A stretch of DNA of 5,688 nucleotides from a virus (lineage: Duplodnaviria > Heunggongvirae > Uroviricota > Caudoviricetes). Where the stretch lies: positions 1 through 5,688 of IMG/VR virus record IMGVR_UViG_2681813269_000003; one strand, 5' to 3'. The position numbers and the translations under genes are program-made. Position 1 is the stretch's first letter; each line of letters begins with the position of its first letter. This document shows positions 1,603 through 5,688 of the stretch, in pieces. Below the pieces are notes generated by a model. The model saw only the letters and a list, made by a program, of their open reading frames with translations, ran no database searches and had not been told where the DNA came from.

Positions 1603-1890
1603 TCAATCCTGCTCAAGATTGTAGATGAGTTTATTCTTCAGCAAAAGCAGAAAACCAGCCTTAAAACCAATCTCTTTCAAAACCCGTAATGATGTGACAA
1701 ATTCGTCCTCACGCAAAATAAAACCGTCCGTCAGAAGTCCATTACAAAAATAAAATAACACAGCACCGCTCTTCCTTTGTTGAGATTGCAAACATCTAAT
1801 GCGGCAATGGCTGACAATCGCTCCATTCTCAACGCGCACAGCATAGAGGCCATTTTCACTAAAAATTTCACGCAATTCTTCGATTTTCAT
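1603..1890 (-). CDS. Hypothetical protein, 95 aa (AT-rich moron; positional equivalent of rem in the Qin prophage)
   Basis: ATG at 1888-1890 with SD GGAAGG 8-9 nt upstream; single clean ORF. Visibly AT-rich relative to flanking genes. Sits between hok and the nin-like genes, where K-12 Qin carries rem, but I cannot verify sequence homology. Confidence 0.5.
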   Translation of the reverse strand: MKIEELREIFSENGLYAVRVENGAIVSHCRIRCLQSQQRKSGAVLFYFCNGLLTDGFILREDEFVTSLRVLKEIGFKAGFLLLLKNKLIYNLEQD

Positions 1891-2139: not shown

Positions 2140-2295
2140 TTACTTCCTGGATTCGTAGTCTACGAAGACAGCGACCTCCGTCTGGCCGGTTCGGATTCGT
2201 ACCTCACAGAGGTCTTTCCTCGTTACCAGTGCCGTCACTATGACGGTTAAACAGATGACGATCAGGGCGATTAACATCGCCTTTTGCTGCTTCAT
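2140..2295 (-). CDS. hokD: Hok-family type I toxin (HokD/RelF-like small membrane protein)
   Basis: 51-aa ORF MKQQKAMLIALIVICLTVIVTALVTRKDLCEVRIRTGQTEVAVFVDYESRK, matching my recollection of E. coli HokD/RelF except for the last few residues. ATG at 2293-2295 with SD AAGGAG 9 nt upstream. Confidence 0.85.
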   Translation of the reverse strand: MKQQKAMLIALIVICLTVIVTALVTRKDLCEVRIRTGQTEVAVFVDYESRK

Positions 2296-2352
2296 AGCCT
2301 GCTTCTCCTTGCCTTTCGGCATGTAAGAGGCTAACCTACATGTGCAAAGCAT
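2140..2352 (-). CDS. mok: Mok-like leader ORF (in-frame N-terminal extension of hok, modulator of killing)
   Basis: In-frame ATG at 2350-2352 with its own SD GAGG about 8 nt upstream gives a 70-aa product MLCTCRLASYMPKGKEKQAM + Hok. This resembles my recollection of K-12 MokC (ML.TCR...KEK.AMKQ..., 69 aa, in frame with HokC). Confidence 0.55.
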   Translation of the reverse strand: MLCTCRLASYMPKGKEKQAMKQQKAMLIALIVICLTVIVTALVTRKDLCEVRIRTGQTEVAVFVDYESRK

Positions 2353-2522: not shown

Positions 2523-3209
2523 TCACTCCTTCTCTTCTTTACCGTAGTGGAGTTGACCAATTTTGATAAGAGGGCGTCCCTGAGATTTGCGGTGTAGATT
2601 GGTATCGCGCAGAGAATACACACAGCCACAATATTCCTGCTGATAGAATTTTTCGCGCTTGCTGATTTCAATCATACGGGACGAGCCGCCCTGCTTGCGC
2701 CAGTTATAATCCCAGTACACCATGCCCGGATAATGCGCGACGGCTCGCCGCCCACAGTCGTTAACCTGCTGCATATTTTTCCAGCGTGAAATGCCCAGTG
2801 AACTGCTGATCACACTGAAACCATTTTCAGCGGCGTACAGCGCTGTCCGCTCAAAACGCATGTCAAAACACATGGTGCAACGGATCCCTCGTTCGGGCTC
2901 CCATTCCATTCCTTTGGCTCGTTCAAACCAGTTGTCTGTGTCGTAATCAGCATCAATAAACGGCACGCCGTGTTGTTCAGCAAAGCGAATATTCTCATCC
3001 TTACGAATTAAATACTCTTTCTGAGGATGAATGTTCGGGTTGTAGAAAAAGATGGTGTAGTCGATTCCCGAGGCCTGAAGCGCCTCCATCACCTCACCGG
3101 AACATGGAGCACAGCAAGAGTGCAGTAGTAGTTTGTTTGCCCCGTTTGGGAGCTCCAATTTGGGCCGTTTGAAATCAGCAACTGTCATAAATATGTTTAT
3201 TGGGGTCAT
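2523..3209 (-). CDS. queH: QueH-like epoxyqueuosine reductase (DUF208 family)
   Basis: 228-aa ORF with the Cys-rich motifs I associate with QueH: [12 protein letters not shown] near the N-terminus, [11 protein letters not shown] centrally, and [12 protein letters not shown] near the C-terminus. Start codon is uncertain: ATG at 3207-3209 or the ATG at 3186-3188, neither with a good SD. Confidence 0.7.
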
Positions 3210-3356: not shown

Positions 3357-3770
3357 TTATTCAGTTCTGGATTTTGTCGCCCTGCGTATCCGCGCTTTCG
3401 CGTTACGCTCAATCTGTATCAGCTTTTCTATATTTCTCCGCCTTTCCTGTTCCTCCTGGCGCAATAGCCTTACATCATCTGCCAGTCTGGTTTCTCTTTT
3501 TGCCACAGAGAGCATCCAGTCAAACGGCTCCACAACCGCACCGCAGATTTTACAGCGGACCTGACGCTCTTTTTCGTCAACCCGTACAGAGGCGTGATGG
3601 CAATATGGTCTTTCCGATGGCTCATAAAGAAAATTAACCTGATTACGAGGGTCATCCTCTTTTACCGGAAATAAAACGATATTGCTTAACTCATCTTGGT
3701 GATGCTGCCAACTTACTGATTTAGTGTATGAGAATGCCAGCGGTAATTGAAGCCTGATAGCTAATTTCAT
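3357..3770 (-). CDS. Hypothetical phage protein with putative zinc ribbon (C-H-H ... C-x-x-C) and basic coiled-coil C-terminus
   Basis: 137-aa ORF with ATG at 3768-3770 immediately after the upstream stop (TGAATG) and a strong SD AGGAGG about 11 nt upstream. Contains YCHH...(15 aa)...CKICG, followed by a Glu/Arg-rich tail (LLRQEEQERRRNIEKLIQIERNAKARIRR). Confidence 0.55.
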   Translation of the reverse strand: MKLAIRLQLPLAFSYTKSVSWQHHQDELSNIVLFPVKEDDPRNQVNFLYEPSERPYCHHASVRVDEKERQVRCKICGAVVEPFDWMLSVAKRETRLADDVRLLRQEEQERRRNIEKLIQIERNAKARIRRATKSRTE

Positions 3771-4207: not shown

Positions 4208-4954
4208 CTACTTAACAACCCTCGAATGGCTAACATTCGGACGCCAGCTCTCCCAGTTAAAATTCACCCAGCGCCCGCCGTTCATGACCATGCGATCCAT
4301 CACCCGCTCGCCGAGCAATGTTTTCATCACCTCATAGTTCAGGTTTGTCAGCATCCCCACGCTGCGCATCGACGCTGTCCGGCGATCAACAATCTGGTGC
4401 AGCACCACCTGCTCGTTTTTCGTCTCGCGCTGAATGCCAATTTCATCAAGAACCAGCAGATCCACTTCGCACAGCTCCCGCAAAAATTTTTCGCCTGACT
4501 GCCCGTCGTCATAGCTGGCGTGCAGGGCGCTCATAACATCAGCCACGGTAACCACAATCACTGTCTGACCGTCTTTCAGCAGGCGATTCCCGATAGCTGC
4601 CGCTAAGTGATTCTTCCCGGTACCAGGTTTTCCGCTGAACGCAAAATTTGTACACCCGGTCATCAGTTCATCGGCGATGGATTTCGCCTGGCTTAACGCG
4701 TATCGCTGGCCGTCGTTCTGCACCTGGTAATTCGCAAACGAGCATTTACGGTGCAACGGCTGGATGCCTGAGCGATTCAGAATTTTTTCCACCCGCAACT
4801 GGCGATTCAGGCGGTTGATCTCCTCGCTACGTTTCTGGCCTTCAGCAAGTTGCCACTCGCGCCACTCCGCTACCGTTCTGAATGGGGCGGTTACATGTGG
4901 CGGGGTCAGTCGGCGGATGCGTTCCAGAACGCCGCCTGTCGCAATATTTTTCAT
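4208..4954 (-). CDS. DnaC-family replicative helicase loader (phage replication protein, AAA+ ATPase)
   Basis: 248-aa ORF collinear with E. coli DnaC as I recall it (for example NRSGI.PLH..CSF.NY and MLTN.N.E.M..LLGERVMDRM). Walker A FSGKPGTGKNHLAAAI and Walker B DLLVLDEIG are present. ATG at 4952-4954 with a G-rich SD. It diverges from host DnaC, so it is a prophage paralogue. Confidence 0.9.
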   Translation of the reverse strand: MKNIATGGVLERIRRLTPPHVTAPFRTVAEWREWQLAEGQKRSEEINRLNRQLRVEKILNRSGIQPLHRKCSFANYQVQNDGQRYALSQAKSIADELMTGCTNFAFSGKPGTGKNHLAAAIGNRLLKDGQTVIVVTVADVMSALHASYDDGQSGEKFLRELCEVDLLVLDEIGIQRETKNEQVVLHQIVDRRTASMRSVGMLTNLNYEVMKTLLGERVMDRMVMNGGRWVNFNWESWRPNVSHSRVVK

Positions 4955-4960
4955 GGTCCG

Positions 4961-5296
4961 TTACCCCCTGAAGCCTGGCGGGATCGCACTGTCCGGCAAC
5001 GAGACGGTGTTAACCTGTCGGAGCAACGTCTCAGGCCGAACACCTTTCGGCGCGAACAGGCCCTGGTATTCATTGGCGATGCTGTGTCGAATCACCTGCT
5101 CAGGTGTAAAACCCTGCTGACGGAATTTTTCCAGTTCCCGTATCGCCCCGTTAGCGCCCTGCTCCGTTCGAATCGGTTTTCGCAATGCCTGTCTGAACCG
5201 GACCCACTCATGCCAGAGTGTTTCCGGCAACCAATCGGGCAGCTCAATAGCCTCCGGCTCGAATTTTTTAGACGCTCGTTTTTGGCGAGGGGGAGA
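4961..5296 (-). CDS. DnaT-like primosomal protein C-terminal domain (3' segment of a frame-disrupted replication initiator gene)
   Basis: Open frame from the stop at 5297-5299 down to the TAA at 4961-4963. It ends ...RQVNTVSLPDSAIPPGFRG, matching the E. coli DnaT C-terminus (...NTVSEPDSQIPPGFRG) as I recall it; KKFEPEAIELPDW parallels DnaT KFAMYPDWQPDADF. There is no ATG or GTG in this frame before the TTG at 5228-5230, so translation probably continues from upstream segments. Lies immediately upstream of the dnaC-like gene, as in the host dnaT-dnaC operon. Confidence 0.6.
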   Translation of the reverse strand, partial: SPPRQKRASKKFEPEAIELPDWLPETLWHEWVRFRQALRKPIRTEQGANGAIRELEKFRQQGFTPEQVIRHSIANEYQGLFAPKGVRPETLLRQVNTVSLPDSAIPPGFRG

Positions 5297-5308
5297 TCAG
5301 TATTTAGA

Positions 5309-5347
5309 TCTTCCTCTTCCTCTTCCTCTTCCTCTTCCTCTTCCTCT
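5309..5347. repeat. Hexanucleotide tandem repeat (TCTTCC) x 6.5
   Basis: Directly visible: six full tcttcc units plus tct. On the minus strand one frame encodes 12 consecutive Glu (GAG/GAA alternating). Confidence 0.9.
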
Positions 5348-5417
5348 GGTAACGCTTTTTGATCCGTTTGTGTAACGCTGGCAGCGTTACCTTTTCGTTT
5401 CAGTTCGCGTATTTTTG

Positions 5418-5688
5418 TTACTCGCTCGTTTGTAACCGCCCGTTTTTTTTAGAGCTTTTTCCGTTATGACGTTCAAAGTTAGGTAGAGAAAGCCCTCCGT
5501 CATTTTCGACCAGCCATCCAACCTGAATTAACGCATCAGCAAAACCAGACATAAAAGTGATGCGATCTATTGCACTTTTTGTAACGCCGCGAGCGTTACA
5601 ATCTGCATTACCGTCTATCATTTGTTGATCCGCCCATGCCCAGAAGCGAATAACCTGAGGTAGCCTGAGTTTAACGGACACTCCTTCC
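5418..5688 (-). CDS. Replication initiator N-terminal segment (partial; 5' end probably beyond the window edge)
   Basis: Minus-strand frame open from the window edge to the TAA at 5418-5420 (...GVTKSAIDRITFMSGFADALIQVGWLVENDGGLSLPNFERHNGKSSKKNGRLQTSE). The GTG at 5679-5681 has GGAAGGA immediately adjacent with no spacer, so the true start is probably upstream of the window. It ends just after an A8 homopolymer at 5443-5450. Confidence 0.45.
   Translation of the reverse strand, partial: EGVSVKLRLPQVIRFWAWADQQMIDGNADCNARGVTKSAIDRITFMSGFADALIQVGWLVENDGGLSLPNFERHNGKSSKKNGRLQTSE

Follow-up and report, generated by a model that had tools for sequence, protein, structure and literature searches.

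A probable decayed Rac-like replication module with an intact DnaC paralogue beside a disrupted O-like initiator gene

The window, by which we mean the whole 5,688-nt stretch of DNA analysed here, very probably carries the early-right/nin replication module of a decayed Rac-like lambdoid prophage, in which an intact ydaV gene for a DnaC paralogue lies next to the dead gene of an O-like replication initiator. The ydaU-ydaV module of Rac-type prophages is already known, its copy in the window is decayed and non-functional, and the feature as such is unremarkable. A first-pass annotation had recognized a DnaC-family loader preceded by a gene that ends like host DnaT, and had read the two as a phage counterpart of the dnaT-dnaC operon; we confirmed that observation in part, and its interpretation is partly supported. 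The analysis sets the real part of this "DnaT-likeness" (a short tail) apart from the unreal part (a DNA-binding core), points out possible origin sequences of Rac-type prophages, illustrates prophage erosion by IS600 and small indels that left the DnaC paralogue intact, and offers, through the tail, a cheap and direct test of loader recruitment by initiators and possibly by DnaT.

Gene order and prophage setting

The minus strand carries all long open reading frames of the window, in the order given here.

4961-5655, minus strand: remnant of a ydaU-family (O-like) replication initiator gene, a pseudogene lying in three different frames
4208-4954, minus strand: ydaV-like gene for a DnaC-paralogue AAA+ helicase loader, intact, 248 aa
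3771-4193, minus strand: DUF977 protein gene, intact, placed by PHROGs in the class of Ren-like exclusion proteins
3357-3770, minus strand: Zn-ribbon open reading frame
2523-3209, minus strand: epoxyqueuosine reductase QueH gene (Pfam, 1.9e-65)
2140-2352, minus strand: HokD-type toxin open reading frame, intact
1603-1890, minus strand: Rem-like open reading frame
Last in the minus-strand order: DUF1367, YbcO and DUF1133/Q-like genes

The nearest complete Escherichia coli genomes match the region at 97-98% identity, and the pair is annotated there as 'hypothetical protein' or 'phage replication initiator YdaU family protein' together with 'ydaV: ATP-binding protein', with cro-like and ydaT genes as neighbours, comparable to prophage Rac. 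The Rac ydaU-ydaV pair of E. coli K-12 (b1359-b1360) has the same order and neighbours (cro/ydaS-like, ydaT, ydaU, ydaV, DUF977), but the initiator copy in the window is a pseudogene, unlike K-12 ydaU. Proteins identical to the YdaV of the window occur in many assemblies under the names Shigella sonnei or E. coli, and fragments of the upstream protein carry the names S. sonnei, S. flexneri or E. coli. Unlike its closest relatives, the window retains the DUF1367, YbcO and Q-like genes and so captures the same prophage in another state of decay. In L004, L007, L008, L010 and L011, past position ~9700, a second IS3-family copy interrupts the sequence after the Rem-like gene and is followed by a phage integrase fragment. 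The QueH gene of the window is placed in the prophage nin region with the replication genes on one side and hokD on the other.

Lesions of the initiator gene

Changes in the initiator gene were mapped against an intact 789-bp homologue (L001:4398-5186) that encodes 262 aa.

5656-5688, plus strand: terminal 33 nt of IS600 (IS3 family), inserted in the initiator gene, the element running past the window
5443-5450, minus strand: run of eight A (A8; A6 in intact relatives), a +2 change causing a frameshift
5311-5346, minus strand: (GAGGAA)x6 tract coding for a poly-Glu linker, an in-frame 18-nt expansion relative to the intact homologue
5294-5295, minus strand: junction of a 10-nt deletion, TCCCCCTAAA having been lost between TCCCCCT direct repeats, causing a frameshift

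The intact homologue matches the 'replication initiation protein' family phrog_2509 over residues 1-262 (1.2e-89), has the RefSeq name 'phage replication initiator YdaU family protein', belongs in its N-terminal 130 residues to the phage initiator families phrog_2509/9474, and is matched by an HMM of the YdaU-type core at E=1.8e-32; labels on its relatives in PHROGs and GenBank are 'primosomal protein' or 'replication protein O'. In the alignment to this protein, the IS600 end substitutes for the first ~34 initiator codons and the frame then switches twice, leaving three pieces in three frames. The window copy lacks the uninterrupted frame of a YdaU-family initiator owing to the IS600 truncation, the +2 frameshift and the 10-nt deletion, and with the initiator destroyed by these three lesions the module cannot initiate replication. 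The open frame at 4964-5296 on the minus strand, previously taken for the gene preceding the loader, contains no ATG and offers as its sole start-like codon a TTG at 5230, without a ribosome-binding site. Rather than a gene, this frame is the 3′ end of the ydaU-family initiator gene, out of frame, and the DnaT-like stretch in the window is an untranslatable relic.

One of the lesions falls in an A-run, a typical error site, and the frameshifts might on that account be homopolymer errors of sequencing or assembly, in which case the initiator would be unbroken except perhaps at the IS junction. The 10-nt deletion does not fall into this class of error, however, and it was present in every one of the seven independent public assemblies that we compared, each of which also has an altered A-run (+2 in six, +3 in one, L009); the IS600 junction is common to five of the seven, and L009, which has no IS, still carries the deletion. 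Lesions that recur across independent assemblies are real mutations of a lineage, and we regard sequencing error as a barely credible account of them. Downstream of the deletion, positions 4961-5294 are still identical to intact copies, which points to recent decay. The same lesions might instead reflect domestication rather than neutral loss if ydaV were kept for host use, for instance as a reserve DnaB loader, as a rival to the host's own, or for phage exclusion. Consistent with such a role, ydaV is intact while both of its neighbours are decaying, the exact 248-aa protein is present in 5731 blocks of an assembly collection, and ydaV is reported in >85% of the E. coli strains examined in an earlier study (PMC5700373). 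Yet the ydaU lesions may simply be recent, given the unchanged DNA downstream of the deletion, and IS600 stands between ydaV and the early promoter region. We consider retention for the host unlikely, and our preferred reading is a decayed Rac-like module with a surviving ydaV and a dead initiator.

YdaV, a DnaC-like loader

The earlier identification of a DnaC-family loader was upheld. The product of 4208-4954 matched Pfam IstB_IS21 (1e-19) and, over residues 1-248 of 248, the NCBIfam model PRK12377 at 510.4 bits (cutoff 389), while its 306 bits against the DnaC equivalog NF005931 remained under the cutoff of 357; from these two scores together, the protein is a paralogue and not DnaC proper. 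In phmmer searches, residues 2-242 aligned with residues 2-241 of E. coli DnaC (6QEL) at 50% identity (E=8e-75), and the first part of the protein (residues 2-57) aligned both with the N-terminal DnaB-binding fragment of DnaC in 6KZA (E=6.9e-5) and with residues 2-55 of 6QEL; identity to K-12 YdaV is 92.7%. Walker A (GKPGTGKNH at 108), Walker B (LLVLDEIG at 166), the sensor (MLTN at 201) and the arginine-finger region (GERVMDRM at 215) all align to the corresponding E. coli DnaC motifs. The gene is not of the Phage_lambda_P type (PF06992), its Pfam match being to IstB_IS21/DnaA-type AAA+ proteins. With its DnaB-binding N-terminus and AAA+ motifs both conserved, YdaV is most naturally read as a putative loader of host DnaB. 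Replication through DnaB loading by a DnaC paralogue, as the first-pass annotation had proposed, is therefore plausible for this type of loader, but the module cannot work in the window, where the initiator is a pseudogene.

Repeats within the initiator gene

The heptamer GCGTTAC is found six times in the window, where 0.6 occurrences would be expected. Five of the six lie inside the initiator gene, which contains the following elements.

5372-5390, no strand assigned: linker palindrome GTAACGCTGCCAGCGTTAC, a candidate initiator-binding (origin) site
5348-5357, no strand assigned: half-site AAGCGTTACC, a candidate initiator-binding (origin) site
5581-5599, no strand assigned: second copy of the palindrome, GTAACGCTCGCGGCGTTAC, within the region coding for the N-domain

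Intact copies of the gene contain three 19-nt palindromes (GTAACGC-N5-GCGTTAC, that is, TGTAACGC-N5-GCGTTACA) at spacings of 192 and 207 bp, and a half-site adjoining the GAGGAA tract, whose strand is purine-rich and which itself adjoins the palindromes; two palindromes and the half-site are left in the window. A Klebsiella phage, whose initiator shows only 51% identity, has kept two palindromes and the half-site in the same places (L012:2149-2167, 2358-2376 and 2381-2389). Its linker palindrome is translated in another reading frame (KVTLAALQ rather than GNAASVTQ); the nucleotide sequence has thus been preserved without the peptide, a sign that selection acts on the DNA. Where the N-domain is of another type, the same part of the linker harbours different repeats: five copies of AGATGTTCAAACA, one of them inverted, in K-12 ydaU (L003:2472-2578; NC_000913 about 1421471-1421577), lambda-like 18-nt iterons in the Gifsy-2 initiator, and clusters of GTCCGCAT in BUCT711. 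The K-12 repeats are a candidate for the origin of the Rac prophage; oriJ was mapped genetically and is not known to have been assigned to this repeat sequence.

The search for origin sequences in or near the DnaT-like gene, which the first-pass annotation had suggested, thus returned palindromes that are enriched in the window and kept in the Klebsiella phage. They point to a candidate lambda-style origin inside the initiator gene, and repeats in this position argue for origin-type over restart-type initiation, although intervals of 192 and 207 bp, wider than those between lambda iterons, count against an origin (the palindromes are ~200 bp apart, the lambda repeats ~20 bp). Both types of initiation had been envisaged; the former now has candidate sites and the latter found no support. 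Among otherwise near-identical strains, the copy number of the GAGGAA repeat beside the candidate sites ranges from 3 to 8, in the manner of a VNTR.

Extent of the likeness to DnaT

Two features of the C-terminal coding region bear on the relationship to DnaT.

4964-5020, minus strand: codons of a DnaT-type C-terminal tail, RQVNTVSLPDSAIPPGFRG, with 16 of 19 residues as in E. coli DnaT 161-179
5045-5269, minus strand: YdaU-type three-helix core, a C-terminal domain (KKFEPE...QGLFAPK) widespread in phage initiators

The DnaT-like ending that had been noticed is real, even though the gene to which it was assigned is not. The frame at 4964-5296 ends in RQVNTVSLPDSAIPPGFRG and DnaT in RDVNTVSEPDSQIPPGFRG, the tail fits the conserved DnaT motif D(V/I)NxxSxPDxxIPxGFRG, the same tail is carried by Buchnera DnaT, and a phmmer search of the PDB with the upstream frame reached the C-terminal domain of DnaT (2RU8, E=9.5e-5). 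Against the NCBIfam model for DnaT, NF002770, the score was 16-18 bits (cutoff 201), through model positions 161-179 only (E=0.002-0.006), and Pfam and NCBIfam searches with the 89-aa and 102-aa fragments yielded no domain match except this tail. The Pfam DnaT domain PF17948, which matches E. coli DnaT at residues 89-154 (3.7e-21), did not match the intact homologue or the fragment at E<=10. DnaT was likewise not matched by a profile built from 118 tail-less cores and not retrieved in fold searches, hhalign gave a probability of 0.3% for the tail-less core alignment against the DnaT core alignment, and the N-terminus of the intact homologue does not align to that of DnaT, with its oligomerisation domain and PriB-binding linker. 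Homologue searches started from the C-terminal fragment or from the C-terminal domain of DnaT brought up only short and closely related proteins, which added little to the sampled diversity; the search with the DnaT domain did supply members of the DnaT family.

We found no Pfam family that covers the YdaU-type core. A HMMER scan of 1.84 billion representatives with the tail-less core recovered 3010 clusters at E<=1e-3, in nearly all of which the core forms the C-terminus of proteins of 240-370 aa; their N-termini are HTH_36, DUF1376 or Phage_rep_O domains, which identifies the core-bearing proteins as phage initiators. With a matching tail and a core that is unrelated by profile, the upstream protein is a predicted O-like initiator that shares with DnaT the conserved tail and little else. 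Of the profile matches that had been anticipated, AAA+ DnaC was recovered and the DnaT C-terminal ssDNA-binding domain was not, and the description of the upstream protein as DnaT-like as a whole fails on its phrog_2509/9474 N-terminus as well as on its core.

These results bear directly on the proposal of a working phage dnaT-dnaC primosome pair, in which a DnaC paralogue would act together with an ssDNA-binding protein resembling DnaT in restart-type (PriA-like) or origin initiation. Gene order and tail do recall dnaT-dnaC, and the initiators of some phages, SPN1S among them, have a genuine C-terminal domain of the DnaT type. Against such a pair stand the three breaks in the upstream gene, the negative PF17948, hhalign and fold searches, an N-terminus that is an initiator domain rather than the DnaT N-domain, and repeats within the gene that indicate initiation of the origin type; we judge it very improbable. 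In the decayed Rac-like module that we favour instead, the two-domain YdaU-family initiator, when intact, would bind the repeated palindromes inside its own gene as in a lambda-style origin, its C-terminal part (the three-helix core and the DnaT-type tail) would bring in YdaV, and YdaV would capture host DnaB and load it onto the opened origin.

Comparison with known replication modules

K-12 YdaU has only its C-terminal 119 aa in common with the intact homologue (85% identity, with an identical tail). The N-domain is DUF1376 in K-12 and of the phrog_2509/9474 type, which has no Pfam model, in the window, and the repeats within the gene differ accordingly. The lambda O-P arrangement is similar in its N-terminal origin-binding domain, in the repeats of its linker-coding part and in a C-terminal part matched to the loader downstream, but that loader is P, whereas a DnaC-type AAA+ protein follows here. 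The tail of lambda O (LDLTNTDWIYGVDL) is of the P-associated type LDxNNTDWxxxV, in contrast to the DnaT type of YdaU-like proteins. The C-terminal core of lambda O was also considered as the same domain as the YdaU-type core and was ruled out by profile search, the YdaU-type core profile giving no match to it.

Gifsy-2-type modules combine a YdaU-type core (E=1e-27), a DnaT-type tail (RDVNHISAPDKTIPTGFRG), a 249-aa DnaC paralogue downstream and linker iterons, and differ in their Phage_rep_O/HTH_36 N-domain, in 18-nt iterons at 22-nt spacing and in having intact genes; notes in the Gifsy-2-type record cite phi80 gp15 and phiP27 DnaC. With host dnaT-dnaC, the module shares the ~19-residue tail before the loader (present even in Buchnera DnaT) and a loader that is a full-length homologue, but the DnaT N-domain, PriB-binding linker and PF17948 ssDNA-binding core are all missing. 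DnaT acts at PriA-bound forks, not at an origin. The first-pass annotation had preferred the dnaT-dnaC arrangement to that of lambda O/P. The module instead follows O/P logic, because an origin-binding N-domain, repeats within the gene and a C-terminal domain are succeeded by the loader, and that loader and the last ~19 residues of the initiator are of the DnaC/DnaT type.

In the DopC-DopE pair of Cellvibrionales/Oceanospirillales, an O-like C-terminus resembles DnaT_C (HHpred against 2RU8) and the loader gene is adjacent (Brezellec et al. 2017, PMC5509034); that loader is P-like, however, and the pair is chromosomal, domesticated and without iterons (PMC5509034). Epsilon15-like phages that share an initiator N-domain carry either a YdaU-type core, as in Klebsiella phage BUCT711 (L013 2001-2762), or a true DnaT-type core, as in SPN1S (L014 2001-2816). 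Both have the same terminal tail, and neither has an adjoining loader gene. By eye, the core of Salmonella phage SPN1S is very close to that of host DnaT.

Correspondence between tail and loader

From phage records and four IMG/VR scans we assembled 344 loci and recorded for each which residues follow the core and which gene comes next. The first IMG/VR scan, made with the core alignment, returned near-identical Rac-like loci only, and the later scans used other first sequences; DopC/DopE is outside the sample.

DnaT-type tail (PDxxIPxGF[RK]G and the variant PMNHIPEGFTG), followed by a YdaV/Gifsy-2-type DnaC paralogue: 212 loci, about 80 distinct sequences
KDYGxTExPxW tail, followed by a second, 282-303-aa type of DnaC-like loader: 82 loci, 41 distinct sequences
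HWNxxxxWE or LDxNNTDWxxxV tail, followed by a Phage_lambda_P loader: about 35 loci, about 30 distinct sequences

Across about 340 loci, which are related to one another and not phylogenetically independent, tail type agreed with loader type and zero 'wrong' pairings occurred, the four tail types (PDxxIPxGF(R/K)G, KDYGxTExPxW, HWNxxxxWE and LDxNNTDWxxxV) corresponding one-to-one with loader types. About eight loci have a DnaT-type tail without an adjacent loader (among them L012, L013, L101, L148 and L180). The DNA of L213 and L258 is 91% identical up to the last codon of the core, and beyond this point tail and loader are both unrelated. This break, together with the agreement across loci, indicates that the tail is inherited with the loader and not with the rest of the initiator; the tail codons abut the loader gene, and linkage therefore contributes to the association.

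We suggest tentatively, as a possibility that we rate somewhat below even, that phage O-like initiators may end, over their last ~15-30 residues, in portable docking peptides specific for their loaders. Host DnaT bears the DnaC-associated tail and is encoded beside dnaC, and its residues ~161-179 would on this suggestion recruit DnaC or DnaB-DnaC to the PriA-PriB-DnaT preprimosome. DnaT residues 154-179 are unassigned in structures (PMC4132743), and a 2026 structural paper calls the recruitment of DnaB-DnaC to the preprimosome unknown and tentatively gives it to the DnaT N-domain (PMC13377028).

In two of the IMG/VR phages with a DnaT-type tail (L148:2818-4952 and L180:2818-4937), the tail is followed, in place of a loader, by an 85-aa open reading frame and a ~650-aa open reading frame containing a C-5 cytosine methylase. 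The last residues of lambda O (L016, 87-986), KPKLDLTNTDWIYGVDL, recur as the tail in the L210-L239 loci, whose initiators have a core unrelated to that of lambda O, yet a P-type loader downstream.
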